A stretch of DNA of 64,000 nucleotides from Pinctada imbricata. Its lineage: Eukaryota. Below are positions 520 through 53,722 of this stretch, piece by piece. The first letter of the stretch is position 1, and each line of letters starts with the position of its first letter. Both the position numbers and the translations under genes were made by a program. The stretch is from assembly GCA_033119305.1 (NCBI GenBank), contig VSWD01000002.1:9274974-9338973 (forward strand), written 5' to 3'. A model generated the notes under the pieces. That model saw only the letters and a program-made list of their open reading frames with translations, was not told where the DNA came from and ran no database searches.

Positions 520-1149
520 CTATGACAGAATATCATCCACCATTCTGGATAGTGGGACATCATAGTGTATGACGAGTTCCCCATATCGACCGTAGAACTT
601 CCTCAGTGACGATGTTAGTCGGTCATAAACATATCCCTGACTGAGAAGCTTATCTGAAAGACGCCTAGCTCTCAGAACAAAATCCGTATATTTGGTACTT
701 GCTCTGGCATAGCGTATCAACTGAGATATGAACACGCCGTAAGCAGGCGATGAAGGGATGTTGCTACTCAGAAAAGGAAAGTTCGTAATGCTGAAATTGA
801 AGTCGTCACGTTTGTCATAGAGTGAGGTGTTCATGTGACCATCAGTGTCGTAGGACAACATTATGTCCAAATAGGATGCTGAATTATTTGTCTCTGTAGT
901 TTCTTTGACTTCAAGCTCCGAAGGATAGATACTGCTCAGGTAATCCGCGAATTTTGGATTATTGATGGACAACACATCGTCTATGTATCTGTAAGTGAAG
1001 TTGAAATCAGAAGCTAAGTATCTTTTCCCTTCAGAGACCAAAGATTGAATGAATTCAGCTTCGTACGAGTAAAGGAAAATGTCGGCAAGGAGTGGGGCAC
1101 AATTGGTACCCATTGGAATTCCGACAATTTGCTGGAAGACTATGTGCAA
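520..1149 (-). mobile_element. Retroelement reverse-transcriptase fragment (GIPMGTNCAPLLADIFL ... RYIDDVL ... KRDDFNF...YGVFISQLIRYAR); no intact ORF
   Basis: The minus-strand 209-aa ORF has the RT fingers/palm motif and a YIDD catalytic box. It is truncated at both ends. Confidence 0.6.
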
Positions 1150-2183
1150 TTTTACACAATCGTTCTCTTAGCAACAGGCTATTTCCTGAATATTTAAAAA
1201 AGAATTCCATGTAATCAAAGATCTACTTTATTACATTCATTAATTATCATCACTTTGAATTGAGATTCAATGATCTAGTGAAAAAGGACTCTAAATATTG
1301 TCTAAAATTGCTTTCATTTTTGCGATTTGATATCATGTTGCCATAGCAACGAACACAAACTTTGTTCCAATGGGATTGGATGTTTTATTTGCATGAACAA
1401 CTCAATAAGTAATTTATCATTGAATTTTGAAAAAAATATGCTTAAAACACTTTTTTGATAGGGTACCTGTGTTGTTGCTATGGAAACACAAGGCTTTCTA
1501 CTCTACCTTGATGAAAAAGTAGGAAAAAAGTAGGAGTAGTCAATGAAAAAAAAGTAGGAGAAAAATAGGAAAAAGAAGGAAATAATAGGGGAAAAGTAGG
1601 AAATTTTCCATTACTTTTAGCGTCAATTTTCAGTAAGTATGACACACAAATCACTGTAAGCAATGATTGTAGACTGGTAATGTTCATCTTTGAGGAAATC
1701 ACAGAGAGAAATACAAACAGATTGATTTTTCATGTAAAATAAACAGAATGGGCGAGCGAAGCGAGCCCGAAATATTTTTTTAGATTTTGAATCAGATGTA
1801 GATGACAAGTGAAGCAAGTAATTTTTTACTTTTGAGATTTAGTAACCGAAACGTGCATGTCTGGTTAGTGCTGAAATTTTATCTGTTCTTAAATGATGCT
1901 TTTGAATTTGAAGACGTTTAACATTTGAACCACTTGGTGAGTGTCACTGCTGGTGGAACAGTAGTCCCGGAGGGCACATATAGCCAAGTTCGATCAACTT
2001 CGGTTGATCGTCTATCTCCTCAACGCATTCGAACATTTCCGTTATGAAAAAAAATCTCAAAATTTTTAAAACGTTGGTCCTGTAGCATCATATCCAACCC
2101 ATCCTGCTACGTTTTCGGTACATTTTTGGACATAATATTTTTCACACTCTTTGACAAAATTACATTGTTTAGATTGAGGATCA

Positions 2184-2217
2184 CTGACGAGGGTTAAGTA
2201 CCCGAAACTTGCATGTC
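2184..2217 (+). ncRNA. Type-I hammerhead ribozyme motif (CUGACGA-GGGUUAAGUACCC-GAAAC-UUGCAUGUC), helix III variant
   Basis: Contiguous HHR catalytic core: CUGANGA, a short helix II hairpin, GAAA, a minimal helix III and a GUC cleavage triplet. Helix I strands (GGAUCA / UGGUCC-like) flank it. Confidence 0.6.
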
Positions 2218-2654
2218 AAGTCCATGCTGAACTTTTATCTGTTCTTAAACGATGCTATTGATTTTGAAGACGTTTAACATTGGATAGTAAATGCAACCTT
2301 ATTTTTCACACATTTGCTTTATGAAAAAAATATCACTTTCATTAATTTTTGTTGTTGAAAAGATGGTATCAAGGGAATGTGAAGGAATAAACATCAGAGA
2401 AGTATACTTATACCTTCCATACGCATTTGTTTAAACCTTTTTTGTTTTAATTTACCTTTTTTATGTGTAACGGTTTTTCTCAAAGTATACATATAACTTT
2501 CATTCTCAATTTTTGGACAATTTTAGACGTGTTTTTATGAAACAAATACTGAAAATGTGTTCGCTTTTTGTCTTTTGATTCTGTTATGTTAACGGCGTAT
2601 GTTTAAGAATTTTGAAAAAAAAAAGTCGACAAACTAGAACTTCCCCACGCGAAA

Positions 2655-3590
2655 TGAAAATAGGACCAACATACAGAGACTGATACAAGAATGATACAAT
2701 CTCCACAGAAACACGAATGACAAACAGACGGAGACAATGACACAGCTCCACAGAAACACGAAGGACAAACAGACGGAGACAATGACACAAGCTCCACAGA
2801 AACACGAATGACAAACAGACAGAGACAATGACACAGCTCCATAGAAACACGAATGACAAACAGACAGAGACAATAACACAGCACCATAGAAACACGACGG
2901 ACAAACAGACGGAGACAATGACACAAGCTCAACAGAAACACGAAGGACAAACAGACGGAGACAATGACACAGCTCCACAGAAACACGAAGGACAAACAGA
3001 CGGAGACAATGACACAGCTCCACAGAAACACGAATGACAAACAGACAGAGACAATGACACAAGCTCCACAGAAACACGAAGGACAAACACACAGAGACAA
3101 TGACACAGCTTCATAGAAACACGAAGGACAAACAGACGGAGACAATGACACAAGCTCCACAGAAACACGAATGACAAACAGACAGAGACAATGACACAAG
3201 CTCCACAGAAACACGAATGACAAACAGACAGAGACAATGACACAGCTTCATAGAAACACGAAGGACAAACAGACAGAGACAATGACACAGCTCCACAGAA
3301 ACACGAAGGACAAACAGACAGAGACAATGACACAGCTCCACAGAAACACGAAGGACAAACAGACGGAGACAATGACACAGCTCCACAGAAACACGAAGGA
3401 CAAACAGACGGAGACAATGACACAGCTCCACAGAAACACGAAGGACAAACAGACGGAGACAATGACACAAGCTCCACAGAAACACGAAGGACAAACAGAC
3501 GGAGACAATGACACAGCTCCACAGAAACACGAAGGACAAACAGACGGAGACAATGACACAAGCTCCACAGAAACACGAAGGACAACTTAT
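2655..3590. repeat. Minisatellite, about 45-46 bp unit (caaacagacggagacaatgacacagctccacagaaacacgaagga) x about 20
   Basis: Direct periodicity visible in the sequence. The overlapping ORFs on both strands are repeat artefacts. Confidence 0.9.
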
Positions 3591-5505: not shown

Positions 5506-5700
5506 GTTTGTCAATGAAAGGAGGGGAATTCCAACAACACTCGGTTGCAGCAGTCACAGCAAAATCACCAAAAACACCCCATGCAAAAACACAGAGCAGA
5601 CATGCACTGCAAGAGACAGAAAAGGGACAAGGAAAAAACACAACATAGAAACATCAACCTCAAAAGACTACACATAAGCCAACGAGACATATGGGCAATC
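5506..5700 (+). mobile_element. SINE-like interspersed repeat copy (ggaggggatctccaacaacactcggttgcagca...); other copies at 6245-6560 (+), 8400-8530 (-), 9003-9150 (-), 12290-12640 (+), 13180-13340 (+), 13440-13560 (+) and a fragment at 53860-53880
   Basis: At least 8 copies in both orientations share a 150-300 bp consensus. A second conserved module (ggatgcttactccttccgggcacctggtc...) recurs at 375-430, 5276-5335, 8655-8710, 10243-10300, 14255-14300 and 14545-14600. Confidence 0.6.
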
Positions 5701-6795
5701 GATGCCAACTTCGACGCACATCAGAAATGCCAGTAGCCAATTGTGTAGTTAACCGAATTACGAGCAAACAACCCTCCAAACAAGACAGCATGATGCAGGG
5801 GTCCAAGCAACACACCGATAGATATGTAAACAGATTTAAAAATAGAGGGCGACGTGCGAAATACAGTCTGTGCTCTGTCGGTTGTAGCGAGCTCATGCAT
5901 GTTATTAGTATCTCCCGAGGAGTCCGACCGACACTTTGAGAGGACAGGTAGCCCTGTCATTCTCCAACGAGGTTTTGACAAGGTCCGTGATGGAGTCTTG
6001 TAGTCACAGACAGTGTGTATAGTTATGTATAGTCTTGTAGGCTTGGTGTTTGATTCGTCTTTTGCTATTTCACACAGGGATGATTTGGTGTTTTTCGGTT
6101 TGTGCTGCAACTGTTTACTGTTGGAGTCCCCCTCCTCTCTATTTTTAAAGATTCGTTCATGCCATTTAGAATGTTGCTGTTCGTAGCAAACATGTACATT
6201 GCTTAAAACTGTACATTGCTTAAAACTGTATCAGATAAATCAGATACAAAACAAAGGAGGGGATCTCCAACAACACCAGGTTGTAGCACCCACAGCAAAA
6301 CCCCAAAACACCCTATGCAAAAACACAAAGCAGACAAGCACAAAGAGACGCGTAAGGGACAAGGAACGTCAACGCACAACACAAAAAACATCAAACACAA
6401 AGGATTACACATAAACCAACGAGACCAATGGGCAACCGGTGGCGACTTAGGATGGCCATCTGCCATGGAAATAGCAGAAGATATGGTTATCCTGGATTAC
6501 GTGCGCACAACCCTCCGACTTTTCCGATTACCTAGAGGTCTCGAAGAACGTACAATTGTGGTGTAAAACAACCTCCTCACTGTCAGATGACCACACACAA
6601 ACAAGACCGCAAACGCAGGGGCCCAAGCAACACAGATGAATATGTAAATGGATATAAAAAGAGGGCGTACGTAATACAATCCGTGATCTGCCGCCGCGAG
6701 CTCATGTATGATATCACCCGAGGAGTCCGACTGACATTCAGAGAGGACAGGTGGTCGGGGCCCTGTCTTCTCTGAAGAGGTTTGGACAGGGCCCG

Positions 6796-7467
6796 TCATG
6801 GAGTCCCGTCGTCACAGTCAGTCAGAGTGCAAGTTTTAAGAATGCGCTTGTACAAGACTGTAGATTGGTCATGTACCAAGCCTATAGTCCGTCTGGTGAC
6901 ATTAGGATCATACCCACGGTATAAAAGGCGTTTGATGATTCTGACGCATTTTCGATAGTGATGTTGTCTATCTTTGATCCTTCTTATCTTGTTAATTATG
7001 TCACTATAAAATGCAGGTAGTGAAAAACCCAAAGTAATATACTCTGTTGCCTGTATTGGTCCGAATTTCAGAAGAAGTTGACAATGATTTTTGTAAAATT
7101 TCCAGAAAGTCTTTACTAGTTTGTGAAAGCGAAAACCTTGTCCTAAAAGTTTCTTGGTAATTTGTAAATTTCTACTATGAAAATCCAAAACATCAGTACA
7201 TGCTCTAGCATACCGGATGAGCTGTGAAATATAGATACCATAGGACGGTAATCTAGGAACATCACCGTCAAGCCAGGGGAAATTTACTATGTTAAATCCA
7301 AAATCATCTCTTTTGTAATACACACTTGTATGGATCTCTCCATTAACAATTTTGATATTTAGGTCCAAAAAGGGTTTTTCTGTGTTTGAAACGTTTACCT
7401 TGTTTAAAATCAATTCTTGTGGATAAATAACATTTTTATATTTCTCAAAAACAGGATTGTCGATCAA
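6796..7467 (-). mobile_element. Second fragment of the same RT family (C-terminal part: YYKRDDFGFNIVNFPWLDGDVPRLPSYGIYISQLIRYARA...)
   Basis: Protein-level similarity to the 520-1149 ORF over about 60 residues. Further small fragments sit at 9940-10069 (+) and 19687-19780 (+, YRKCVRIIKSLLYRGY). Confidence 0.55.
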
Positions 7468-9210
7468 TTGATGAATTGCAAATCAATGAAACAATTGATG
7501 AATTGCAAAGAGTCCGATATTGATCCCACTGTTAAACTAATGCACAAAGACGTAATAATCAATGTATTCATGAAAGCATTCTATGATATTAAAAAATTAT
7601 GACGTCAAAATGTTAAAGTCCGTTTATGGTACGATGGTGGGTATCTATTGGTCCTTCATTAAGATGGTCATCGAGACTGACGGACTTGATTCAAATAATA
7701 GAATTTGTATTGACACAGAGCTCTAAATTGCTGTGCAAGTCTGTGAAGGAGGACCCTAGACTTGCTCATGTCCCTATATCAAATAAAGTTATTGAAAGAG
7801 AATTGCAATTATCAATCAAAATTTTCATGTCGAAAAGAAATGCCCCTTTAAAACTATAAGCAGTGAGCAATTGGTTGCAGAATCACTAAACAGAGAAGAA
7901 CATTTCGTAAGGCTATGAAGAGCTTTAGTTCAATTAATAAAAAAGTCATTTATTTAATTTTATAATTAAATTGATATAAGGACTTGAGCAAGTCTAGGAG
8001 GACTTAAGCTTTTCAATGACTAACTCTTCGTGTCTCGTCTTACATGGAAACTCTTGATACTGAACTGATTCAATATAAACTTGACGCCCTTACCCAAGGT
8101 TGATCCTGGGCACACTGCCGGCAGCAGGTGTTATATTCTATGAAATTGATTATTCATATAATGGCACAATTTCTATGACATAATAATAATCTAATATACC
8201 AGATATTGAATAGAAAATATATGTAAAAAGATGAATCAAAGGAAAAGGAAAACCAAACCATATTGTAATATCATGAGACATCTAGAGTTATTCAGTGTGA
8301 AGTTATTCTACAAAACAGTTAAAACTGCCTTAGTTGTCCATACATATGGAGAGGCTATCGTGTGTGACTAAGGATTTCATTTCTCAAGAAAAATGTTCAT
8401 GTGTATATGGTGTGAAATGGTGTTCCTTGTTCCTTATACGTCTCTTTCTGTGAGTTTCTACTCTGTGTGTTTTGGAGTTTTTCGTGGATGCTGCAAACGA
8501 GTGTTGTTGGAGATCCCCTATTTTCCTGTATAAAGAGATCACCTGTAATAAACATCAAAGAAGTACCTAACAGTTCTTCAGTCTCAAAGTCGAGAAGGCA
8601 AGGCAAAATCGTGAGCATTCCCATCGAAACGGTTGCGAACTCCGGAATGAACAACATTCCGAAGTGAGACCAGGTGCCCGGGGAGAGTCAGCATCTCCTG
8701 ATTGCATCTTATATGACATTCCCGCAAACGGTCTCTTAAGACAGGTGTAACTTTAGTTAAATACAGATAAGAGAGGATCTCCAACAAGAAGGCGTTGTAT
8801 TGGTCACTGTGGATCACACAGGCATGAAAAAAGAAATGTGAAAAACAAGAACAATTACATCATTACAACAAGTTCAAATTCAAGTTGAAATACTTTATTA
8901 ATGTGTCATATGCCAAATAAATCAATTACAATACCGTAGCTATAAGACAGTAATCATGTATATATGTCATTTAAAAATGTACCAAAGGTCTTTTGTTATT
9001 CATGTTTCTATGGTGTGAGTGGGTGTTCCTTGTCCCTTTTGCTTCTCTTTCTGTTGGTGCCTGCTCTATGTTTTTGCATAAGGTGTTTTTGCGTTTTGCT
9101 GCGGGTGATGCAACCGTGTGTTGTTGGAATCCCCAACTTTCTTTGCTACCGAGAAAAGAAAAAGCGCAAATACCGGCATAGACAGTCTGTTTGATTTACT
9201 ATATACACAG

Positions 9211-9480: not shown

Positions 9481-10479
9481 CAACGTACAGTTTGTATCGG
9501 TGTCTTTCCCAAAGTTGCGCACTGGCAAATCGTGACAAAGGGACTCCATAACTCTTTTAAATCTCGTCAGAGAAGACTGGGTTCTGATTCTCTGTCCTCA
9601 GACTTCTCGAGTGATTGATCTTGAGCTCGCTTCAGCCAGCAGAGCACAGACTGTTATACGCATGCCATAGAATATTTAAGCTCAATATACATAGAATCTG
9701 TGTTACGAGGGGCCGCTGCGTTTAACTTTCTCGTTTGTGATATCACCTAACAGTGAAGTTTTATGCTTATACAACGATTGTGCGTTTATTGAGATCTCTG
9801 TGTATCTGGATAAGTGGGAGGGTTGTGCGCATGTAAGCCGGATAACCACACCATTTGCTAATAGCAGATGGCTGTCCAAATACGGCGCCGGATGCACATT
9901 AGTGCTCAACAAAGCAAATGTCATAAACAAGAAAAAACCTATTTGGACCTCAATTTTAAACAGAGAAATTTATACAAGTGTGTATGACAAAAGGGATCCA
10001 TCATATTACACTTTTCTTTGCTTGACGGTGATGTTCCTAGACTACCATCATACGATATTTACATACTAGAATCTGAACTCATTCTATACACTAGGACATG
10101 TACTTATGGGTTTTTTTTTATTATTATTATTTTCACAGGAGAAATATGCAATTTATTTACAAAGTGTAATGTCTATGTTTCCACTTTCATAAACTAGACT
10201 TTCTGGGCCTTTTACAAAAATTACTTTGCGACGGGTGTTGCATGCAATCAGGAGACGCTGACTCTCCCCGGGCACCTGGTCTCACTTCGGAATGTTATTC
10301 ATTCTTTTGTTTGCAACCGTTCGAATAGGAATTCAAATGATTTTGCCTTGTCTTCTCGACTTTTTTACCTCTAGACTGAATAACTGATATGTAATTCTTT
10401 GATGTTCATTTCATCTTCGTTTGAAATTTGGACCTACACATGCATCAGACTATACTTCCTTTTGAATTTCTTAACCTAC

Positions 10480-10735
10480 CTTTATGGTGACATATCAAAG
10501 CCTATATGGTGACATATCAAAGCCTTTATGGTGACATATCGAAGCCTTTATGGTGACCTATCAAAGCATTTATGGTAAGATATCAAAGCCTTTATGGTGA
10601 CATATCAAAGCCCTTATGGTGACATATCAAAGCCTTTATGATGACATATCAAAGCATTTATGGTGAGATATCAAAGCCTTTATGGTGACATATCAAAGCC
10701 TTTATGGTGACATATTAAAGCCTTTATGGTGACAA
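10480..10735. repeat. Minisatellite, 22-bp unit (tatggtgacatatcaaagcctt) x about 11
   Basis: Direct periodicity. Confidence 0.9.
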
Positions 10736-11808
10736 ACCCCCTTGTAATTCTAAGATTGATTTAAAATTCAAGAATTGTAAAGCTCAGCTTCAGCCACCTT
10801 GAAGACTTTAATGACCTCATAGATATAAATTTCGCGCGTTTTCGATATTCCATTTTAAACCGGAAGCAAGAGTTTTCGCGGTAGTGTTATTGAATGAAAT
10901 CGCCCCTCACAGGTCAGTATGATGTGCTAAAAAAAAAAAAAAAAAATTTAATGACTCGTAACGCGTGACGGTTCTCAGTCAATACAAGTGGGAATATAAA
11001 TAAGACTATATAATAATTATGTTTATATTATTTGTATGTGATTTTGTTTCTCTTACGGTATAGCAAGATAAGAAATTTATCTCCAACATGACTATAATGC
11101 GATGGTCACGCGCTTGAAATGAGAAAAATGGAACTAAGAGACGAAGAGACGGAGGCATTGAGAAAAAGACATTTTTATTCCAACCATGACTTGAAATCTT
11201 GCGATTGTGCTCCATTGAAAATATTGGAACGTCTTTTGATGATTTTCCCTTGTTCTTTCAGAATACGATCTCGATTCATGCTTAAGTGAAGTAAGAAAAT
11301 GGCAACGGTATAAGATTAATACGGATATACCAAAGGATAAAGATGGAGACGTAGATGCTTATGGATAACAAACACAATGGAATAACTTATCATTGGGTAG
11401 ACCATGACTGCTCAACCCAAAAATTAATTTCTATCCTAAATGCTATTTCCTTATTAGTACATGACTTTCTAGTCTTCTGATTAAATATCGAGCAGTGTCG
11501 GTCTCTTTTCGCTTGCTATCTTAATGACAATTTATATTTCATCAATAAACAATTAGCTTGGATAGGAGATTATGACGTCATTTGATTGTTCAAGACTGCT
11601 TTGAGCGTCAACGTGACTTTTCAGTTGTTAAGTTTTACCACAAGCATTGCACCAAAATACTCAAATGACGTCACAAACCACAATTTTGGTTCTGCATACA
11701 GTGTTCAATAGTCTACATTGTTCTCTTGAAATGAATCTATTTTGATAAAGATTTTGAATTATATAATAAATGTATTTGCTGGTGAATGATTTGTTTAGAT
11801 TGAGGATC

Positions 11809-11843
11809 ACTGACGAGGATAAAATACCCGAAACGTGCACGTC
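11809..11843 (+). ncRNA. Hammerhead ribozyme motif copy with degenerate helix II (CUGACGAG GAUAAAAUACCC GAAAC GUGCACGUC)
   Basis: Same core architecture, with mutations in helix II; possibly inactive. Confidence 0.4.
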
Positions 11844-14800
11844 TGGTCCATGCTGCAATTTTTTCTGGTTTTAATGTGTCCGATGTACAATAGGGCATTT
11901 TTCCATGCCTGGTAAGGTGCTATAAACTATATATTTTCTGAAAGGTTATAATGCCCACTGCTCAAAAATAATAATTTTGGGGTCAGAAAAAAAGGGGAAA
12001 AACTGGTGAAGCATTAAAATTGTCTATATTCTCTATATAACCTATCCAAAATGACAAAGTTGTACAAGAATTTTCCCCCTTTGATTTTTAAGACCCGGGA
12101 GTCTTATATCTGTACTCAGGGCATCATTACCTTTCAGAAAATATATAGTTTATAGTACCTTACCAGACATAAAATTTACAATTCTTTACAATGGAGATGA
12201 TTAAAACGCTATGTAAAATGACTCTATTGTACAACGGATACCTTAAATGAAGCTATTGAATTTGAAGACGTTTAACAATCGTAAACATATGGAGGGGATC
12301 TCCAACAACACTCGGTTGCAGCACCCACAGCAGTATTCCAAAACACCCGATGCAAAAACACAGAGCAGATACCTAAGAAAGGGATGCAAAATCGACAAGG
12401 AACACTAACTCACTTCCTATGTAGAAACATGAAACACCAAAGATCACAAATAAACCAACTAGACCAACTCACGCCAAAGAAACATGGAACACAAAAGACC
12501 ACACACAAACAAACGAGACCAAGGGGCAACCGATGCCGACTTAGGAAGGTCATTTGCCACGCAAGAAGCAGACAGTCTGGTTATCTGGATTACGTGCGCA
12601 CAACCCTTTCACTTTTCCGATTACCCAGAGGTCTCGAAGAACACACAATTCTGGTGAAAATAACCTCCTAACAGTAAAATGCAGCATGACACAGAGGCCC
12701 AAGAAACACACAGATGGAGATGTAAATGGATATAAAAAAACAGAAGGCGTGTGTGAGCAATAAGTCCACAACACTGGATACCTGACGAAGAAAGTGTTTA
12801 AAATATCCATAATTTAAAAAAAAAAAAAAAACAAAAAACGGTTACCTATGAGATATAAAGGATCTTAATGACATGCTTTCAGTTAAGTTAAAACACAATG
12901 CTAGGGCTCCAATTCAGGAGTCTGAAACATGTCCTTGGCAAACATGTTTGTATACACACATCAGCTCCAAAAATATAAGCGTCCTGCAAGTTTAAGAAAC
13001 ATTTCGTGAATAAGTACTCGAAACGTGCATGTCTGGTCCATGCTGAAAATTGATCTGTTCTTAAATGATGCTATTGAATTTGAAGACGTTTTACATTGGT
13101 TGCTGAGAAATCAAATCTTTTTAGCCAATCAGAGCCTTTTGCGGAAAATTTTGTAAATAGATGGCTTCGAAGAAAGGAGGGGATCTCCAATACCACTCGG
13201 TCGCAACACCCACAGCAACCCCCCCCCCCCCAAAAAAAAAAAACCAATGCAAAAACACAGAACGGACACCCACAGAGAGAGAGACACAAAAGGGACAAGG
13301 AACACCAACTCACACCATGGAAACATGAATCACAAAAGACCACATATAAACCAAAGATTTGATGCATTTCTGGTCCATGCTGCCAATTTATCTGTTCTTA
13401 AATGATGCTATTCAATTTGAAGACGTTTAACATATAAAACCAGCGAGACCAACTCGAGCCATAGAAACATTAAACACAAAAATCCACACATAAACCAACG
13501 AGACCAATGGGCAACCGTTGTTGACTTAGGACAGCCATCTGCCACGCAAACAGCAGATGGTGTGGCTGTCGAAAACACAAAGTTGATAGATGATATTTAT
13601 GAGTTCTTGTACATTGTTAGAACTCTGAAATCATCAAATCGTGGAGGGTTGGTCAGGTTTGTTGATTGATCGGTACGAAAATCACAAAATTTAAAGAAAG
13701 CCTTGAGTACTAGTTATTCCATGCTGTAGCGATTGTGAAATTTAATGCTCCGCTTTTGGAGAAATCGAAAATATGTCAGTCCTATAAAAACTAATAAGAA
13801 CCCTAGGCAAAAATGTTTGTTGACGGACTGGCCTGGAAGAAAAACAACTAGATATAGGACCTTCCACTGTGATTCCACTCGTTAGATTCCACACAATGTT
13901 GTCTGGCAGTTAAGGAGAAGATGTCTTATACAAATATGTGTTGTCAAAGTGATTTACCTCCATGTTTGACGGCACGAAGAACAGAACACTTGGTAGAGAA
14001 CATTTAGTTTTTGCTTCGTGTAAGATACATGTCATAGCTCTATCCTTAACAGACGCTACGGCATGCATTTATGTTATTTAGAATTCTGTTCTTCATATTT
14101 TCTCTAGTTGGAGTTTTTTCTTATAATTCCTCTAGCATTGCTGATGATACGCGGTTTGTTGAATTGCGCATATTTTACTTTGCATAGTGTTCTGACTGTC
14201 TGGTGCAATCCTGGGCCATGATTCCATAGGTAATGATAATGGCAGCTAGCCAACAGGGGTTGCTTACTCCTCCCGGGCACCTGGTTCCACCTCTAGTTTG
14301 GTGCTCTATTGTGAGTGTTGTCGAGAATATCGTCAGGATCTTCTCTAACGCACTTGTGTCACACTTATGTTCTTTGCCGTGTAGAGCTCGTAAAAAAGTT
14401 CTCCGCGAGGGGTTTGACAGTAAGTGTTTTGAGTAGTTTCCCTAACATGGTCGCCATAGCACTTCCTATATAGACATAACCTCAGACAGTGCATGTATTG
14501 TTATATATTGTTTTCATTGTCGTGCATGAACATCGACGGCGGGTGCGGCTAGCCAACAGGGGATGCTTACTCCTTCCGGGCATCTGGTCCCACCTCTAGA
14601 CTCATTTGAAGACGTTTAACATTGCTAGAGGTCCGGAGTTGCTCCAGGAGTTATCAGGATCTTATTTAACTCATTCGTATCACACCATTGCCGGACATGA
14701 ACCACCATTACATTCAGCGAGTTACTTTATTTACTCTGTACTGTCCTTTCTCCACCCATGGGTAAACCGGGTATCTGGCATATTAGACGAACATGCATGT

Positions 14801-15027
14801 GTATGCTGAGCACTAACGCATAAACGGCATCTCTAATTGTATCGATGCTCCGAATGGAGTTGAGAATGCACTGGACTGGTTTCTTCTTTTTACTGTTCTC
14901 AAAATTTTCTCGAAATTCTGAAAATTGGGTCCTGTAGCATCATATCCAGCCCATCCTGCTACGTTATTCGGTATTTTATGATATAACATAATCTTTGACT
15001 ATATTACATTGTTTAGATTGAGGATCA

Positions 15028-15063
15028 CTGACGAGGGTTAAGTACCCGAAACGTAAATGTCTG
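15028..15063 (+). ncRNA. Type-I hammerhead ribozyme motif (CUGACGAG GGUUAAGUACCC GAAAC GUAAAUGUC)
   Basis: Core conserved, helix III variant; lies in an approximately 350-bp tandem unit. Confidence 0.55.
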
Positions 15064-15587
15064 GTCCATGCTGCAAATTTGTCTGTTCTTAAATGATTCT
15101 ATGAATGAATTCGAAGACGTTTAAAAATTGAAAAGGTCTCGCCAGGGAGGTGATGATAGAGGCCGCGTGAGGTACAGGCAATGCAAGACTATATAAACCC
15201 TTACCTTTACCATGATGGTAATTGCAATATAACTCCTGTCTATTTCCACTTAACCTTTTTTTATTTTATTTTATTTTTATTTTTATTTTTTGTGAAATGA
15301 CACTGATGTCATAACCACAAATATCATTTTAGAAAGAGTGGACACGATATCATACCTGTATGATTAAAGTAATGAATAGAAGCGGAAGATTTGAATCCCA
15401 CGTTCTTAATCAGTTGTAACTTATTCAAGTTTTTTTTTTCATTTCATTTTTATCTGCTGATGAAGTCTCTTTCGTTTGCTGAACCCTGGTTTTTATCTTT
15501 AATTCTCTTGACTTCATTGTGTCTCGTTTTTATAATAAACGTGCATCTTGAAAACTGATTATATAATATTGTTTAGATTTAGGATCA

Positions 15588-15621
15588 CTGACGAGGGTTA
15601 AGTACTCGAAACGTGCATGTC
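15588..15621 (+). ncRNA. Type-I hammerhead ribozyme motif (CUGACGAG GGUUAAGUACUC GAAAC GUGCAUGUC)
   Basis: Complete conserved core with predicted cleavage after GUC at 15621. Helix I can form between GGAUCA upstream and UGGUAU/UGGUCC downstream. Confidence 0.7.
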
Positions 15622-15935
15622 TGGTATATGCTGCAAATTTATCTGATCTTAAATTATGCTTTTGAATTTGAAGACGTTTATTTTGTACTACTTGATGAGT
15701 GTCACTGCTGGTGGACCAGGAGTCCCCGAGGGCACATGTAGCCAAGTTCGATAAACTTCGGTTGCTTATCTGTCTCTTCAACTCATTTGAAATTTTCTGT
15801 TACAAAATATCTTGAAATTTCTCAAACGTGGGTCCTGTAGCATCATATCCCATCCATCCTACTACGTCTTTCGGAACATTTTGGACGTAATTTTCACACT
15901 TTTTGGTCATATATCATTCTTTAGATTTAGGATCA

Positions 15936-15969
15936 CTGATGAGGGTTAAGTACCCGAAACGTGCATGTC
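15936..15969 (+). ncRNA. Type-I hammerhead ribozyme motif with canonical CUGAUGAG (CUGAUGAG GGUUAAGUACCC GAAAC GUGCAUGUC)
   Basis: Canonical core. It lies 348 bp downstream of the previous copy in the same orientation, a tandem arrangement compatible with the dimeric Penelope/retrozyme-type HHRs described in metazoans. Confidence 0.75.
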
Positions 15970-16339
15970 TGGTCCATGCTGCAAATTGATCTGATCTTAA
16001 ATGATGCTTTTGAATTTGAAGACTTTAACATTTGTACTACTTGTTGGGTGTCACTGCTGGTAGACCAGGGGTCCCCGAGGGCACATGTAGCCAACTTCGA
16101 TCAACTTCGGTAGATCGTCATTTGAAATTTTCTGTTACAAAATATCTTGAAATTTCTCAAATGTGGGTCCTGTAGCATCATATCCCACCCATTCTACTAC
16201 GTCTTTCAGTACATTTTTGGACGCAATTTTCACACTTTTTTGTCATACCGGTATATCAATGACGCTATAACAGGCTAAATGTGCGAAGTGCATGCAAATG
16301 AAAATGCCAGATATTTAGAATAAATGTAAATATAAGTAA

Positions 16340-16483
16340 TGACTGTCTTACTTTTGGTGTTCATGGGTGTATAATTCAGGTTTGACATGTGCAAATTTTC
16401 CGAGAATCGCTTCGCGATTTACGGAATTTGCACGTGACCAACCAGAATTATAAACCCATGAACACCAAAAGTAAGACAGTCAT
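16340..16483. repeat. Near-perfect 38-bp inverted repeat (aatgactgtcttacttttggtgttcatgggt(g)tataattc / gaattataaacccatgaacaccaaaagtaagacagtcatt; one unpaired g in the left arm) with a 62-bp spacer that is itself palindromic; MITE or hairpin-RNA candidate
   Basis: Arms read directly. The spacer tgcaaattttccgagaatcgcttcgcgatttacggaatttgca is a nested palindrome. Confidence 0.7.
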
Positions 16484-17379
16484 TTCTTAATTAACCGGAT
16501 AAGCCTTTTGATTAATTATCGATTATAATCATACTCTTGTATTATACTGCAAAACTGTGAGATATTTCAAGATTTGTCAACAAGTTACGTAACATTGCCA
16601 CGACCACAAATTTAATTGAAACTCAGTAAAATGTTTCATTCCAGTACGCATACTGATCCGAATCAATGAAACCAGCCGACTGAAACAAATCATGAACTGC
16701 TTCTCTGTCAAAACTATGGATTTTCTGATAAATATATCATTCTTAAAAAGTTTTGAATTTTACGATTATAATCGATTTTGAATATTTTAATCGATTGTCG
16801 TAATCGGAAGGGTCTGGTGACGATGTCGGCGATAATCGGCACAACACTAGCAATTTTAGTGTGTATGTACGCAATCGATTATAATAATCCCTCTTTTTTT
16901 TCCTTTACTGTGAAGAAGATTTCAACCATACGAACGATAACTCTTACGTCTTTCGGTTAAGATATTACTTAGATCTGAATGCACAAAGTTTGAAAAGGAA
17001 ATTAATCTGGTTTCCAATCCCTTTGTTATTATTTTAATTCAATATAGATTAAGAATAGGGAAATGAAATTGAATGAAAGATAAAAAAAAGCCCTGATTAT
17101 GAAATGTAATATCATTTTCCCGGAAGCATATTTTACTTACGAAGTTAATATTGGATTAGGGGCGTTCTTGACAATAGAAGAATGAAAAAACAAAAATAAT
17201 GTAATATCCAATATGCTGTATTATCAGATTCAAAATGCTACGTTTTGCTTAGTGAAACGTTTAGCTAGCGTACTGAAAGGATTTCGTTTCGATAAGTACA
17301 ATTCTTATATTCAAAAGTAAAGTTTTCATATAAAAAAAATTTTGATAATTCCCAGTCTTATAATATCGTGGCTTTCCAT

Positions 17380-17545: not shown

Positions 17546-17899
17546 CCCTTTATATACATGTATATATATATACATGTATATATATTACTTTCACGGATGA
17601 CCCGTAGTAATTCAAAATATCCCACTCGTGCATAGTTCTTTAATTCCATGGATCTTGATATATACATTGAAATAAGGCATTTTTTAAGAACAGGGCCATG
17701 TTTTGGCATACATTTCACAATGTACCCTGCTTTAGTACTAATTTAAAGTAACTTCTGGTAACAAGACCTTTCTAAATAGAATGTCAAACGTCTTTAAATT
17801 CGATAGCATAATTTAAGAACAGCTAAAGCATTTTCCGGAACAAAAAAGACCTCCTATTGATTTAGCGTATATTTAGAGACATATTTGGAATAAGTCCTT

Positions 17900-19610
17900 C
17901 TTTGGTTTACTTTTTGATTATTTTTGGAACAAGGTTCTGCTTTTGGTATAAATTCAAGTCATTATTGGAACAAGGTCTTGCTTCGGCATACCGTATATTG
18001 CAAGTCATTACTGGAACAAGGTCCTGCTTCGGCATACATTTCAAGTTGTTTGTGGAACAAGGCCTTGCATTTGGGCTTTTGGTATACATTAAAAATAAGT
18101 TTTGGAACAACATCCTGCCCTGACATACATTTCAAGTCATTATTGGACCAAAGCCATGCTTCGGCATGCATTGCAAGTCATTTTGGAACAAATCTTTGCT
18201 TTGGCATTCATTTCAAGTTATTTTGGAATAAAGGCCCTGCTTCGGCATACTTTGCAAGTCATTTTGGAAAAAAATCCAATGGCATGCTTTGGTATACATT
18301 TCAAGTTATTTTTGGAACAAGGCCCTGCTTCGGCATACATGTCAAGTCATTATTTGAACAAGGCCATGCTTCGGCATACATTGCAAGTCATTTTGGAACA
18401 AGGTCCTTTTTTCGGCATACATTGCAAGTTATTTGTGGAACAAGGCCTAGCTTTTGGTATACATTAAAAATCAGTTTTTTAACAACGTCCTGCTCTGGTA
18501 TACATTATAATTAAGTCATTATTGGAACAAGGCCCTGTTTCGGCATACAGTATATTGCAAGTCATTATTAGAACAAGGCCCTGTTTCGGCATACAGTATA
18601 TTGCAAGTCATTATTGGAACAAGGCCCTGTTTCGGCATACAGTATATTGCAAGTCATTATTGGAACAAGGCCCTGTTTCGGCATACAGTATATTGCAAGT
18701 CATTATTGGAACAAGGTCCTGTTTCGGCATACAGTATATTGCAAGTCATTATTGGAACAAGGCCCTGCTTCGGCATACCGTATATCTGAAGTCATTATTG
18801 GAACAAGGCCCTGCTTCGGTATACCGTATATTGCAAGTCATTATTGGAACAAGGCCCTACTTCGGCATACCGTATATCTCAAGTCATTATTGGAACAAGG
18901 CCTTGCTTCGGTACCGTATATTCCAAGTCATTATTGGAACAAGGTCCTGCTTCAGCATACCGTATATTGCAAGTCATTATTGGAACAAGGTCCTGCTTCG
19001 GTACCGTATATTGCAAGTCATTATTGGAACAAGGCCTTACTTCGGCATACATTATATTGCAAGTCATTATTGGAACAAGGCCCTGCTTCGGTATACCGTA
19101 TATTGCAAGTCATTATTGGAACAAGGCCCTACTTCGGCATACCGTATATTGCAAGTCATTATTAGAACAAGGCCCTACTTCGGCATACCGTATATCTCAA
19201 GTCATTATTGGAACAAGGTCCTGCTTCGGTACCGTATATTGCAAGTCATTATTGGAACAAGGCCCTGCTTCGGCATACAGTATATTGCAAGTCATTATTG
19301 TAACAAGGCCCTGCTTCGGCATACAGTATATTGCAAGACATTATTGGAACAAGGCCCTGCTTAGGTATACAGTATATTGCAAGTCATTATTGGAACAAGG
19401 CCCTGCTTCGGCATACCGTATATTCCAAGTCATTATTGGAACAAGGCCCTACTTCGGCATACCGTATATTACAAGTCATTATTGTGTCCTATGACACATT
19501 GGAACAAGGCTCTGTTTCGGCAAATACTGCAAGCCATTTTGTAACAAGGTCCTGCTTCGGCATATATTGCAAGTCATTATTGGAACAATTAAGTCACTTC
19601 TTAGTATAAA
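17900..19610. repeat. Satellite, about 46-bp unit (gcaagtcattattggaacaaggccctgcttcggcataccgtatatt) x about 36, 1.7 kb
   Basis: Regular period with point variants and some 9-bp deletions. Long + strand ORFs (18522-19494 etc.) are periodic-repeat artefacts. Confidence 0.92.
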
Positions 19611-25179: not shown

Positions 25180-25362
25180 AACCCTCGGGCGGACAGCTAC
25201 CGCTATGCTGTCACCCCGGGAGGGGAAGAGGTGGGGAAGAAGAAGAAGGGGAAGAAAGCCAAGAAGGAAAATCTCGATGACCTCAAACAGGAATTGGAGA
25301 TGGACGAACATAAAGTCCCCATTGAAGAATTATATCAGAGACTGGAAACAGACCCCAATGTG
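25180..25362 (+). CDS. ATP1A: Na+/K+-ATPase alpha exon 2 (NPRADSYRYAVTPGGEEVGKKKKGKKAKKENLDDLKQELEMDEHKVPIEELYQRLETDPNV)
   Basis: Acceptor tatttttag|AAC and donor GTG|gtaagc; 183 nt, phase 0-0. The lysine-rich N-terminal region and the KENLDDLKQEL / EELYQR motifs are typical of invertebrate Na/K-ATPase alpha. Confidence 0.85.
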
Positions 25363-27895
25363 GTAAGCGCTAACAGTAACATACAATAAAACATAAAGTC
25401 CCCATTGAAGAATTATATCAGAGACTGTAAACAGACCCCAATGTGGTAAGTGCTGACAGTAACATACAATAAAACATAAAGTCCCCATTGAAGAATTATA
25501 TCAGAGACTGTAAACAGACCCCAATGTGGTAAGTGCTGACAGTAACATACAATAAAACATAAAGTCCCCATTGAAGAATTATATCAGAGACTGGAAACAG
25601 ATCCCAATGTGGTAAGTGCTGACAGTAACATACAGTAAAACATAAAGTCCCCATTGAAGAATTATATCAGAGACTGGAAACAGACCCCAATGTGGTAAGT
25701 GCTAACAGTAACATACAATAAAACATAAAGTCCCCATTGAAGAATTATATCAGAGACTGGAAACAGACCCCAATGTGGTAAGTGCTAACAGTAACATACA
25801 ATAAAACATAAAGTCCCCATTGAAGAATTATATCAGAGACTGGAAACAGACCCCAATGTGGTAAGTGCTGACAGTAACATACAGTAAAACATAAAGTCCC
25901 CATTGAAAAATTATATCAGAGACTGGAAACAGATCCCAATGTGGTAAGTGCTGACAGTAACATACAGTAAAACATAAAGTCCCCATTGAAGAATTATATC
26001 AGAGACTGTAAACAGACCCCAATGTGGTAAGCCCTAACAGTAACATACAATAAAACATAAAGTCCCCATTGAAGAATTATATCAGAGACTGGAAACAGAC
26101 CCCAATGTGGTAAGTGCTGACAGTAACATACAGTAAAACATAAAGTCCCAATTGAAGAATTATATCAGAGACTGGAAACAGACCCCAATGTGGTAAGTGC
26201 TGACAGTAACATACAATAAAACATAAAGTCCCCATTGAAGAATTATATCAGAGACTGGAAACAGACCCCAATGTGGTAAGTGCTAACAGTAACGTACAAT
26301 AAAACATAAAGTCCCCATTGAAGAATTATATCAGAGAATTGAAACAGACCCCAATGTGGTAAGCCCTAACAGTAACATACAATAAAACATAAAGTCCCCA
26401 TTGAAGAATTATATCAGAGACTGGAAACAGACCCCAATGTGGTAAGTGCTAACAGTAACGTACAATAAAACATAAAGTCCCCATTGAAGAATTATATCAG
26501 AGAATTGAAACAGACCCCAATGTGGTAAGTGCTAACAGTAACGTACAATAAAACATAAAGTCCCCATTGAAGAATTATATCAGAGACTGGAAACAGACCC
26601 CAATGTGGTAAGCCCTAACAGTAACATACAGTAAAACATAAAGTCCCCATTGAAGAATTATATCAGAGTCTGGAAATAGACCCCAATGTGGTAAGTGCTA
26701 ACAGTAACATACAGTAAAACATAAAGTCCCCATTGAAGAATTATATCAGAGACTGGAAACAGACCCCAATGTGGTAAGTGCTGACAGTAACATACAATAA
26801 AACATAAAGTCCCCATTGAAGAATTATATCAGAGACTGGAAACAGACCCCAATGTGGTAAGCCCTAACAGTAACATACAATAAAACATAAAGTCCCCATT
26901 GAAGAATTATATCAGAGACTGGAAACAGACCCCAATGTGGTAAGTGCTAACAGTAACATACAATAAAACATAAAGTCCCCATTGAAGAATTATATCAGAG
27001 ACTGGAAACAGACCCCAATGTGGTAAGTGCTGACAGTAACATACGGTAAAACATAAAGTCCCCATTGAAGAATTATATCAGAGACTGGAAACAGATCCCA
27101 ATGTGGTAAGTGCTAACAGTAACATACAATAAAACATAAAGTCCCCATTGAAGAATTATATCAGAGACTGGAAACAGACCCCAATGTGGTAAGTGCTGAC
27201 AGTAACATACAGTAAAACATAAAGTCCCCATTGAAGAATTATATCAGAGACTGGAAACAGACCCCAATGTGGTAAGTGCTGACAGTAACATACAATAAAA
27301 CATAAAGTCCCCATTGAAGAATTATATCAGAGACTGGAAACAGACACCAATGTGGTAAGTGCTGACAGTAACATACAATAAAACATAAAGTCCCCATTGA
27401 AGAATTATATCAGAGACTGGAAACAGACCCCAATGTGGTAAGTGCTAACCGTAACATACAGTAAAACATAAAGTCCCCATTGAAGAATTATATCAGAGAC
27501 TGGAAACAGACCCCAATGTGGTAAGCGCTAACAGTAACATACAATAAAACATAAAGTCCCCATTGAAGAATTATATCAGAGACTGGAAACAGACCCCAAT
27601 GTGGTAAGTGCTGACAGTAACATACAATAAAACATAAAGTCCCCATTGAAGAATTATATCAGAGACTGGAAACAGACCCCAATGTGGTAAGCGCTAACAG
27701 TAACAGTAACATACAGTAAAACATAAAGTCCCCATTGAAGAATTATATCAGAGACTGGAAACAGACCCCAATGTGGTAAGCGCTAACAGTAACATACAGT
27801 AAAACATAAAGTCCCCATTGAAGAATTATATCAGAGACTGGAAACAGACCCCAATGTGGTAAGCGCTATAAACAGTAACAGTAACATACAGTAAA
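25363..27895. repeat. Intronic tandem array, 83-bp unit x about 30, each unit being the last 52 nt of ATPase exon 2 plus the first 31 nt of intron 2, including the GTAAGT donor
   Basis: The unit cataaagtccccattgaagaattatatcagagactggaaacagaccccaatgtg|gtaagtgctgacagtaacatacaataaaa repeats immediately downstream of the authentic exon 2 donor. Confidence 0.9.
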
Positions 27896-32131: not shown

Positions 32132-32605
32132 GTAGGATTACAATGTATAAATAGAACGGCTGTAACGTTTAATAGATATTAATAGTATATCAGGGCTCGG
32201 CACCATAAACTTAGAATTGACTTAAGTCAAATTCTCAAATAATGATACATGTATGTTACAAAACAGGGAAAATTTCAAAAATTGAATTCATCCATTCTAT
32301 TCTACTTTGAAGACAAATTACTTGTGTAAGTGCATGTGCATGATGTGTTGCAGTATTAATCTTTGATAAGAATTTTCCAAAATATCTACATTTACATCTA
32401 AACTGCACAAAGTCTTGATTTGTTTTAAAGGCGGGCAGTTTTAATAATGCTGACAATGCAAATATTGTATGGAGACTTAAGTCTTTTTCAATATGTACAA
32501 GATGCATGGGGAAAAAAATCCGCAAAAAAAACCATGAAAATAAACAGATTGTACCTGAAATTTTATTTGCTCATAACATCTGTATTACCTACCCTATCTT
32601 TGCAG

Positions 32606-32874
32606 GTACATGTAAAGGCGTTGTCATTCGTTGCGGAGATCAAACTGTCATGGGTCGTATTGCCAACTTAGCGTCAGGTCTAGAAGTCGGAGAGACGCCC
32701 ATCGCCAAGGAAATCGCTCATTTTATCCATATCATTACGGGAGTGGCTGTGTTTCTGGGGGTGTCATTCTTCGTCATTGCCTTTATTTTGGACTATTTCT
32801 GGCTGGATGCCGTCATTTTCTTGATCGGTATTATTGTCGCTAACGTACCAGAAGGATTACTTGCAACTGTCACC
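32606..32874 (+). CDS. ATP1A: Na+/K+-ATPase alpha exon 7 ([25 protein letters not shown]...[17 protein letters not shown]; TM3-TM4)
   Basis: Acceptor ctatctttgcag| and donor ACC|gtaagt; 269 nt, phase 1-0. Conserved PEGLLATVT motif. Confidence 0.9.
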
Positions 32875-33228
32875 GTAAGTTGACTAAGTCAAGAAAAGAT
32901 GAAAATGAATTTTTGCTGAAGTAGTATTTTTCGTTACACATTTTGGAAACATTGTTTAAGATTTTCATGAAGTTAAAGAATGCTGACTTAAGTCTTGTAA
33001 TCTTGTAATGTTAATATGATGAGGAAAAATTGTCATAGATTTTCTTGAACATGTTTATGAATTTGAAATTAGAATTCCAGAGCAAAGACTTTATACTTTA
33101 ACATGGTAGATATAATTTTCAATCAAGCTAGAATGATCATCTTATACTCTAAACAAGTGTTGACTGTGACGCGATATACATTTATGTTTTTAAGATTTAT
33201 GAAAAATGTGCTTAATTAATTAGCCGAG

Positions 33229-52574: not shown

Positions 52575-53722
52575 GCTGAGCGATATAGTCCCCTACCGGC
52601 GGCATATATTTATGTCCTGCAACTCTGCCTATGAATTACTCTTCAATTAAACATATATGAGTTTAAATTAAACTTACTGTCTGTGCAGCTTTAATCGATT
52701 CGAAAAAGAGGTCAAGCGTGACGAAAGTTGAACTTGCTCTGTAGCTATCCAAGACTAAGCTGAGTATCAAATTTCACCTGAATATCTCTATTTGCTGCAG
52801 AAAGAAGTCTGGAAAACTGACAAAAACTGAATTTTCCAAGTCATAAAGGGGCATAACTCCTCGAAAAATAGGTCAAGCGTGATGAAAGTCAAACTTGCTC
52901 TGTAACTATCCAAGACCAAGCTGTGTATCAAATTTCATCTGAATATCTTCATCCATTGCAGAAAAAAAGTCCAGAAAACTGACAAAAACTTAATTTTCCA
53001 AGTTATAGAGGGGCATAAACTCCTTGAAAAATAGGTCAAGCGTGACGAAAGTCAAACTTGCTCTGTAACTAATCAAGACCAAACTGTGTATCAAATTTCA
53101 TCTGAATATCTCCATCCGTTGCAGGGAAGGTCCGGAAAACTGACAAAAACTGAATTTTCAAAGTCATCAAGGGGCATAACTCCTTGAAAAATAGGTCAAG
53201 CGTGATGAAAGTCAAACTTGCTCTGTAACTATCCAAGACCAAGCTGTGTATCAAATTTCATCTGAATATCTCCATCCGTTGCAGAAAAAAGTCCGGAAAA
53301 CTGACAAAAACTGAATTTTCCAAGTCATCAAGGGGCATAACTCCTGGAAAAATGCGTCAAGCGTAATGAAAGTCAAACTTGCTCTGTAACTATCCAAGAC
53401 CAAGCTGTGTATCAAATTTCATCTGAATATCTCCATCCGTTGCAGAAAAAAGTCCGGAAAACTGACAAAAACTTGATTTTCCAAGTCATCAAGGGGCATA
53501 ACTCCTCGAAAAATGGGTCAAGCGTGACGAAAGTCAAACTTGCTCTGTAACTATCCAAGACGAAGCTGTGTATCAAATTTCATCTGAATATCTCTATCCG
53601 TTGCAGAAAAAAGTCCGGAAAACTGATATTCGGACAGACGGAGGGACAGACGGACGGACGGACGGACAGACAGACCGAGAGGAAACTAAGAGTCCCCTTC
53701 GGCGTTGCCGGTAGGGGACTAA
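52575..53722. mobile_element. TIR-flanked MITE-like element (TIR TAGTCCCCTACCGGC) with about 6 internal tandem units of about 150-160 bp and a (GACR)n microsatellite tail; it lies inside a tetraspanin intron
   Basis: 5' tatagtcccctaccggcggcat and 3' ggcgttgccggtaggggactaaat are inverted. Internal periodic units (ggtcaagcgtgatgaaagtcaaacttgctctgtaactatccaagaccaagctgtgtatcaaatttcatctgaatatc...) and ggacagacggagggacagacggacgg at 53631-53675. Confidence 0.7.

Follow-up and report, generated by a model that had tools for sequence, protein, structure and literature searches.

The question raised by this locus is what kind of element is represented by a set of ribozyme-bearing repeats in a 64,000-nucleotide stretch of the genome of the pearl oyster Pinctada imbricata (contig VSWD01000002.1 of the assembly GCA_033119305.1, forward-strand positions 9,274,974 to 9,338,973; this whole stretch is hereinafter the window, and all coordinates are those of the window). 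The first-pass annotation, made from the letters alone, had described tandem 350-bp repeats, each with a hammerhead ribozyme, and had labelled them as retrozyme or Penelope pseudo-LTR-like (LTR, long terminal repeat). Our analysis indicates, with a probability that we put at about 0.85, that the copies are a bivalve non-LTR retrozyme, i.e., a non-coding, non-autonomous retroelement of about 348 nt, with a function predicted by homology to an element of the mussel Mytilus galloprovincialis. The first half of the label is upheld by homology to the cloned mussel retrozyme Mg353 and by the type I geometry of the ribozyme, whereas the Penelope half fits less well, given the helix lengths and the lack, among the open reading frames (ORFs) of the window, of any reverse transcriptase (RT) or GIY-YIG ORF in the same orientation beside any copy.

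A 25-nt query comprising the hammerhead core and stem-loop II (CTGAYGAGGGTTAAGTACYCGAAAC) matches the window, at up to 3 mismatches, in five places, all on the plus strand (2184, 11810, 15028, 15588 and 15936); 0 of 100 dinucleotide-preserving shuffles of the window yielded a match at this threshold. The motifs CUGA(C/U)GA, GAAA and GUC are retained in all five copies. Both strands of the entire window were also scanned with our own generic hammerhead descriptor, which requires CUGANGA, a hairpin with 3 bp or more for helix II, GAAA, a helix III with A15.1-U16.1 as its closing pair, UH, and 3 bp or more in helix I. Only three copies (15028, 15588 and 15936) pass the descriptor, and the minus strand contains no match. 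The fold of these three is of type I, with an open helix I and loop-closed helices II and III, and the C of GUC, the predicted cleavage site, is found at 15061, 15621 and 15969, the last two being spaced by 348 nt. The complete type I core claimed in the first-pass annotation is confirmed; the 348-bp spacing of the copies 15588 and 15936 in the same orientation and their GUC sites at 15621 and 15969 had been given exactly, and so had the positions of all copies but one (11809 instead of 11810). By its primary and predicted secondary structure, the ribozyme is a type I hammerhead, for which self-cleavage is predicted.

In the best copy, 15936, the ribozyme reads GGAUCA CUGAUGA GGGU-UAAGU-ACCC GAA ACGUGCAUGU C and, past the cleavage site, UGGUCC. 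Helix I consists of 6 bp and helix II of 4 bp with a 5-nt loop, with 6 of 6 and 4 of 4 pairs formed, respectively, in our pair table, and helix III is reduced to just two loop-closing pairs; the helix I strands GGAUCA and UGGUCC, the short helix III and the 4-bp helix II are all as originally described. The minimal helix III configuration, likewise noted at the outset, matches the architecture reported for canonical metazoan type I hammerheads, with a helix I of 6 bp, a helix II of 4 bp and a helix III of 1-2 bp with a small palindromic loop, that act as dimers in tandem repeats (PMC4209133).

The repeat unit is 348 nt long and non-coding, with a single ribozyme located approximately 65 nt before its 3' end; the ORF list of the window includes no ORF of at least 100 amino acids within or beside any unit. 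Using one unit as the query for a blastn search against the window, we located copies and fragments at 1838-2276, 11791-11874 together with 12242-12274, 13011-13091, 13363-13429, 14889-15123, 15556-15903, 15909-16239 and, on the minus strand, 17786-17827, which, with the boundaries refined and with the fragment found by eye, brings the total to at least nine insertions or fragments of the element (Table 1). The complete unit consists of a body that contains a conserved block (GTCACTGCTGGTGGACC..CCCCGAGGGCAC), the ribozyme and a 63-nt tail, in this order. It is preceded, head to tail, by a partial copy (a junction of the type AACATT followed by TGTACTAC, at approximately 15683/15684) and followed by the body of a third unit, which is cut short at 16258, so that, by comparison with the other units, the 3' end of the array is lost. 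In the separate insertion at 1833..2282, the ribozyme of the partial copy lacks its 5' half owing to a deletion, and the hammerhead of the full unit is found at 2178-2223.

Accordingly, tandem repetition with the 348-bp period holds for about two units (approximately 15550-16258); the interval 14885-16258, with three ribozymes at spacings of 560 and 348 bp, is not the clean array originally described because it opens with a separate truncated insertion, which ends at the family-wide 3' terminus (GAAGACGTTTAAAAATTG) and is followed by a spacer. A blastn search with 15124-15555 detected no other copy of the spacer in the window. Tandem Repeats Finder reported rows within the spacer, at 15258-15290, and did not call the array itself. 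At the end of the spacer, the sequence AAACGTGCATCTTG (15537-15550) resembles the 3' half of a ribozyme, of which it may be a remnant.

Table 1. Retrozyme copies, their hammerheads and other features of the window with tabulated coordinates
Feature	Position	Strand	Basis and remarks
Insertion 1, 5'-truncated copy (last ~110 nt of body, ribozyme, 3' tail)	14885..15130	+	blastn, direct repeats, terminus comparison
Spacer, outside the element	15131..15549	.	~420 bp; T-rich microsatellite; boundaries approximate
Partial upstream copy, pseudo-LTR-like (short leader, ribozyme, 3' tail)	15550..15683	+	blastn, terminus comparison
Complete retrozyme unit in element phase	15684..16032	+	348-nt period, three-species alignment
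Third unit, body only	16033..16258	+	homology ends ~20 nt short of the expected ribozyme
Separate insertion, ~1.3 units (partial copy, then full unit)	1833..2282	+	ends at the common 3' terminus
Solo copy (leader, ribozyme, tail)	11791..12280	+	split by a 368-bp miniature inverted-repeat transposable element (MITE) at 11875-12242
5'-truncated copy	13011..13098	+	blastn; starts inside helix II, ends at the common 3' terminus
5'-truncated copy	13356..13433	+	starts in helix III; sits in another repeat, flanked by target-site duplication (TSD)
25-nt 3'-terminal fragment (ACTCATTTGAAGACGTTTAACATTG)	14600..14624	+	found by eye; between two CTAG sequences
Inverted 3'-tail fragment (..AAAGACGTTTGACATT)	17780..17827	-	blastn; ends at the same terminus
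Hammerhead, copy 15936	15930..15975	+	cleavage predicted after C15969; sole fully canonical copy of five
Hammerhead, copy 15588	15582..15627	+	cleavage predicted after C15621; G.U pair in helix II, G.A mismatch in helix I
Hammerhead, copy 15028	15022..15067	+	cleavage predicted after C15061; helices I and II intact
Hammerhead, copy 2184	2178-2223	+	two helix I mismatches adjoining the cleavage site
Hammerhead, copy 11810	11804-11849	+	A.C mismatch in helix II
RT-like fragment	520-1149	-	one protein family with the next two, 41% identical mutually
RT-like fragment	6799-7467	-	same family
RT-like fragment	9899-10224	+	same family
Tandem array	2701-3585		period 45 bp
Tandem array	10479-10734		period 22 bp
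Tandem array	17955-19484		period 46 bp
Tandem array	25307-27868		period 83 bp
Tandem array	33379-34815		period 145 bp
Tandem array	52700-53626		period 161 bp
Tandem array	56317-56859		period 27 bp

The identification as a retrozyme is supported by homology over the entire unit. A global alignment of the 348-nt unit with Mg353 (sequence from Supplementary Table 2 of Cervera & de la Pena 2020, PMC7229834), both rotated to the cleavage site, spans the whole unit and scores 83 compared to -44.5 +/- 14.4 for 200 shuffles, i.e., approximately 8.8 standard deviations above the shuffled sequences. In the course of transcription, Mg353 cleaves itself at about 0.1 per min; the repeats in the mussel are 350-390 bp long, include about 5000 ribozyme copies and give rise to abundant circular RNAs of 350-390 nt in gonad and mantle, and expression of linear and circular retrozyme RNAs of unit length has been shown in mussel, coral and axolotl (PMC7229834). 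The two elements are of nearly the same length (353 nt in Mytilus and 348 nt in Pinctada), share the order of parts and an invariant block (CACTGCTGGTGGA...CCGAGG), and have type I hammerheads with a 6-bp helix I, a 4-bp helix II and a 2-bp helix III whose loop is palindromic. They differ in the sequences of helices I, II and III, which have diverged via compensatory changes, and in the length of the helix III palindrome (10 nt in Pinctada vs 8 nt in Mytilus); furthermore, cleavage and circular RNAs have been demonstrated for the mussel element, whereas the Pinctada unit is known from sequence alone.

Homologous units were also detected in another bivalve-like assembly. Contigs from the European Nucleotide Archive (ENA) were reached through relatives of the RT-like ORF 520-1149 (-) that are about 75% identical to it; six contigs, about 80 kb in total, were fetched, and four of these (L009, L011 and L012 from ERZ26168041, the source also of L010, and L013 from ERZ25084491) contain the unit. 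In L012, a partial copy (leader, ribozyme and tail) is followed by a full unit of 346 nt that ends at the homologous terminus; L011 shows the same partial-plus-full layout, with the end interrupted by a 5'-truncated RT fragment inserted in the tail. This RT-bearing copy (L011 4070-4480) has both ribozyme cores mutated (AAAGGACGA and CUGACAAGA).

In the three-species alignment (Pinctada, the ENA assembly and Mytilus), homology extends over the entire unit, and the block CACTGCTGGTGGA...CCGAGG, just past the 5' junction, is better conserved than the ribozyme stems. The region at 15696-15740 and its equivalents, ACTTGNTGAGTGTCACTGCTGGTGGA, a hairpin and CCGAGGG, is where the element is best conserved among the three species, and the hairpin within it covaries (GGAC/GUCC vs GGAGA/UCUCC). 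The invariant 5' block (CACUGCUGGUGGA..CCGAGG) is a candidate recognition or promoter element. A tRNA-like or RNA polymerase III promoter was considered for this block and rejected: ARAGORN identified no tRNA, and the box B-like GTTCGA is not retained in the other species.

Comparison of the ribozymes themselves, with the pairs tabulated from a manual register given that the automatic MAFFT alignment had misplaced the 3' half of the mussel ribozyme, revealed double-sided compensatory changes between Pinctada and Mytilus in both helix I (A-U to G-C and G-C to C-G) and helix II (G-C to U-A and G-C to C-G), with an invariant catalytic core; the sample, nine sequences, is small. The stretch between A15.1 and U16.1 is self-complementary in all three species although its sequence differs: ACGUGCAUGU in Pinctada, AUGCGCAU in the ENA assembly and ACGCGCGU in Mytilus. 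The compensation in helices I and II together with the upkeep of the palindrome argues that the ribozyme has been under selection. Two molecules of the 15936 ribozyme are predicted to cofold into a canonical dimeric hammerhead at -33.3 kcal/mol, compared to 2 x -10.1 kcal/mol for the monomers, with a continuous 10-bp helix III and with each helix I pairing the 5' strand of one molecule with the 3' strand of the other. For the intact copies, the gain of the dimer over two monomers is -11.7 to -13.1 kcal/mol, and the ribozymes of the ENA assembly behave alike; for copy 15028, in which the center of the helix III palindrome has changed from GC to AA (ACGUAAAUGU), the gain is just -5.9 kcal/mol.

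The ends of the insertions bear on how the element has spread. Seven copies share a 3' terminus (GAAGACGTTTAACATT; ..TTTGAAGACGTTTAACATT(G)) that lies 63-69 nt beyond the cleavage site (at 2282, ~12280, 13098, ~13433, 14624, 15130 and, on the minus strand, 17780); the 3'-most ~70 nt of the unit close with ..CTTAAATGATGCTTTTGAATTTGAAGACGTTTAACATT, and the three head-to-tail junctions (~1925/1926, 15683/15684 and 16032/16033) are alike, AACATT being followed by TG(T/A)AC(T/C)AC. None of the copies ends at the cleavage site, and all that are long enough read through GUC. The 5' ends vary: some copies begin within the tail, others within helix III, helix II or the body, and others still 13-45 nt upstream of the ribozyme. 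A 5' edge only ~10-45 nt upstream of a ribozyme is found in three insertions in the window and in two in the other species, and gives the layout leader-ribozyme-tail, body, leader-ribozyme-tail. This architecture, in which a 5'-truncated partial copy precedes a full one, resembles the one seen in Penelope-like elements (PLEs). The insertion at 13356-13433 is flanked by a TSD of about 12 bp (ATATAAACCAAA at 13344-13355 and ATATAAAACCAG at 13432-13443), and a paralogous empty site for it, uninterrupted, is present at ~12445-12470. The fixed 3' end, the graded 5' truncation and the TSD are, as read from these genomic copies, the signature of target-primed reverse transcription.

A tentative model of the life cycle of the element can be proposed in which transcription, cleavage and release are modelled on the structure of the unit and its mussel homologue, and the reverse transcription step on the insertion anatomy and the link to PLEs in the literature. 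A locus with at least two ribozymes would be transcribed through, and the ribozymes, with their 2-bp helix III, would pair via the palindrome ACGUGCAUGU into a dimer in which each site is cut after GUC. Cuts after C15621 and C15969 would release a 348-nt RNA, to be circularized by the host tRNA ligase with the predicted joint ..GUGCAUGUC to UGGUCC..; ligation assays on the mussel element indicate that tRNA ligase, rather than the ribozyme, is the likely circularizing enzyme (PMC7229834). Reverse transcription would then occur in trans, most likely by a PLE, from a fixed site (..GAAGACGTTTAACATT), on a template in which the cleavage site is intact, and which thus would be uncleaved or religated; the predicted outcome is 5'-truncated copies, partial-plus-full tandems and TSDs. 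PLEs are the proposed mobilizers of retrozymes (PMC7229834; bioRxiv 10.64898/2026.07.22.740005). The self-cleaved linear monomer would not be the template of the copies seen because these run through GUC and end 63-69 nt past it; we suggest, as a possibility to which we would give rather less than even odds, that the template was either a circle, read for about 1.3-1.4 rounds starting at a fixed priming site, or a terminally redundant transcript that had not been cleaved.

Several observations weigh against this interpretation of the locus or, at least, against its present activity. A search with Rfam 15 identified no hammerhead family at the gathering threshold in the whole window, and permissive scans (E<=10) of 2.2 kb and of 101 nt surrounding the best copy gave none either; we tentatively attribute this miss to the limits of the models with a minimal, 2-bp helix III. 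The linear fold of the 348-nt RNA is no more stable than that of shuffled sequences (z = -0.29), and neither is the circular one (minimum free energy (MFE) of -70.7 kcal/mol, 59% of the bases paired, z = -0.46); therefore, the high self-pairing of retrozyme circles is not seen here. High self-pairing is a descriptive rather than a defining feature of retrozymes, and the mussel circles have already been noted to behave differently in this respect (PMC7229834). No autonomous partner with the same tail was found within the window (the host genome was not searched). The two sister units are 88% identical to each other and the 1838 copy is 84% identical to them by blastn, so that the locus may be a fossil. 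With their flanks included, the copies 15588 and 15936 are predicted to favor a non-hammerhead fold. Finally, in four of the five ribozymes the pair table shows helix defects.

The alternative fold merits a separate comment. In the sister copies only (15622-15660 with 15915-15935 and the equivalent), UGAUCU, located 22 nt past the cleavage site, can displace UGGUCC from GGAUCA, and a GCAUG/CAUGC hairpin over the cleavage site is possible; this fold, at -17.5 kcal/mol, is the MFE structure of the 86-mer. The idea that it represents a conserved switch was dropped given that the UGAUCU change is private to the two sister copies.

The likeliest of the competing explanations is that the element is a retrozyme by descent but the copies in the window are dead, i.e., neutral fossils without transcription or cleavage, a possibility to which we assign only slightly less than an even chance. 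In addition to the divergence of the copies and a unit fold that is no better than that of shuffled sequence, it is favored by the insertion of the MITE and other repeats in and around the copies, the break of the array at 16258 and the state of the ribozymes, only one of five being intact. The series of active and inactive helix variants anticipated by the first-pass annotation is indeed apparent from the pair table, with one canonical copy, four with helix defects and one, near 1838, in which the 5' half of the ribozyme is deleted; the copies can be told apart by C7 vs U7, ACUC vs ACCC, and UGGUAU. Helix I of copy 15588 has 4 contiguous bp and then the G.A mismatch (UGGUAU), so this ribozyme is probably weakened, with poor cleavage at 15621; in copy 15028, helices I and II form all pairs (6 of 6 and 4 of 4), the change being in the palindrome. 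Against the fossil explanation, the copies 15588 and 15936 retain both catalytic cores, and in a heterodimer of the two, the site at 15969 would have an intact helix I available for its cleavage; moreover, the mussel relatives are very highly expressed from heterogeneous genomic copies. Judged by their sequences, the copies appear old and mostly impaired, and only 15588 and 15936, as a pair, could still set a unit free.

Another explanation derives the copies from an autonomous PLE whose coding body lies outside the window, either as solo pseudo-LTRs or as products of extreme 5' truncation; they would then not constitute a non-autonomous family of their own. PLE insertions are mostly 5'-truncated and form partial tandems, with hammerheads near the 3' end (PMC8557442; bioRxiv 10.64898/2026.07.22.740005), and the copies in the window show this pattern too, in that their 3' end is fixed, their 5' ends vary and the layout is partial-plus-full; the dimer logic is common to both types of element, and RT-like fragments do occur in the window. 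Nevertheless, the junction of the terminus with the unit start recurs identically three times, each time leading into the same non-coding body of about 215 nt and then into the next ribozyme, a 346-nt unit recurs in another species, and the whole unit aligns with a mussel retrozyme that is expressed as a circle of about 350 nt, whereas the RT fragments are unrelated to the unit in sequence, and none lies upstream of it in the same orientation. The geometry of the ribozyme points in the same direction: in the mini-hammerheads of PLEs, helix II spans 7-8 bp and helix I 4-5 bp (PMC4209133), compared to the retrozyme-type 4 and 6 bp here, and a bulged nucleotide, absent from the Pinctada ribozyme, lies 5' of helix II; the Pinctada unit is also only 348 nt long, with no RT or GIY-YIG ORF, in contrast to the PLE pseudo-LTRs described in the same work and by Craig et al. 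2021 (PMC8557442). Derivation from a truncated PLE hence appears quite improbable to us. Still less credible is a ribozyme-bearing satellite spread by unequal crossing-over or segmental duplication only, with the ribozyme as a passenger, because, even though hammerheads were first seen in satellites of newt and other animals (PMC7229834), the window is satellite-rich and a section of the locus forms a local tandem array, the copies, dispersed over at least nine places, have a 3' end in common and are truncated to varying degrees at the 5' end, one insertion, flanked by a ~12-bp TSD, interrupts a repeat whose paralogue is empty, and the compensation in helices I and II and the palindromic helix III in three species argue for selection.

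The retrozyme identified here can also be set beside two other hammerhead-bearing systems. It resembles the plant LTR retrozymes (Cervera et al. 2016, PMC4918200) in being non-autonomous, with a ribozyme in each terminal direct repeat and with cleavage followed by circularization; the features peculiar to the plant elements, namely type III hammerheads, LTRs of about 350 bp with a primer binding site and a polypurine tract, mobilization by Gypsy elements and circles of 600-1000 nt, are all absent. A metagenome scan for the 25-nt motif retrieved seven contigs (L001-L007), all with hammerheads of the bacterial or phage type, and yielded no copy of the element and no material for covariation analysis. 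These ribozymes have the identical 25 nt (CUGAYGA-GGGUUAAGUACCC-GAAAC, i.e., the core and stem-loop II) but differ in a stable helix III of 5-7 bp, an unrelated helix I, presence in a single copy without a repeat unit and, in several cases, ORFs just downstream. All seven score below the gathering threshold of Rfam, with one weak match to RAGATH-1-hammerhead. The shared stem-loop II is probably due to convergence or chance, not to homology of the elements.

Among the other features of the window, the RT-like fragments are not contiguous with the retrozyme units. Besides a weak match to RVT_1, the ORF 520-1149 (-) has 97-100% identity to proteins of Pinctada imbricata; one match with 100% identity is labelled Parabacteroides distasonis, probably a contaminated record. 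Rfam identified a selenocysteine insertion sequence (SECIS_1) at 6744-6807 (-), with 39.2 bits, above the gathering threshold, that overlaps the stop codon of the 5'-truncated RT-like ORF 6796-7467 (-). Nothing coding is found upstream of this ORF, and the truncation removes the region in which in-frame UGA codons would be sought. The Naiad PLEs of clams and spiders encode selenoproteins, with the SECIS right at the stop codon (Craig et al. 2021, PMC8557442); Pinctada is absent from the text of that article. The SECIS-bearing RT at 6796-7467 (-) is at most a candidate for membership in Naiad.

The MITE that splits the solo copy is located in the retrozyme tail and has 37-nt terminal inverted repeats, with TTAA on both sides in the piggyBac style. 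Just past the broken end of the array there is a hairpin (16333-16489) with 65-nt arms that are 91% complementary and a 27-nt loop, for which Rfam gives far-sub-threshold matches to plant miRNA precursors only; it is probably a MITE or a foldback element. A further repeat family with a sharp edge (GGAGGGGATCTCCAACAACACTCGGTTGCAGCACCCACAGCA) is represented on the plus strand at ~12290-12738, ~13176-13565, ~5518-5704 and ~6256-6660 and on the minus strand at ~8987-9143 and ~8467-8525; it twice begins 6-80 nt past a retrozyme 3' terminus, and one of its copies hosts the TSD-flanked insertion. Two exon-like ORFs, one at 32506-32883 (+) with the Pfam domain E1-E2 ATPase and a sequence typical of the alpha subunit of Na+/K+-ATPase, and the other at 58489-58854 (-) with the Pfam domain Tetraspanin, indicate that the host genes are at least 16 kb away from the retrozyme cluster.

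Elements of this kind are already known, and the closest relative has been studied at the bench; the Pinctada member is newly recognized, and our literature search found no paper that describes it. The findings overturn no current view. They widen the range of the mussel retrozyme family, which now takes in the pearl oyster (Pteriomorphia) and one or more additional bivalve-like assemblies, and the cross-species comparison supports dimeric action of the ribozyme, given that the palindromic helix III is retained while its sequence shifts. That a ribozyme of the self-cleaving type, missed by the Rfam covariance models, was caught by reading the raw sequence is a caution to those who annotate animal genomes automatically. 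The constant 3' terminus, the TSD and the partial tandems provide concrete genomic evidence for the proposed PLE-type mobilization of retrozymes, and the anatomy of such insertions may hold mechanistic information that has so far been unexploited.

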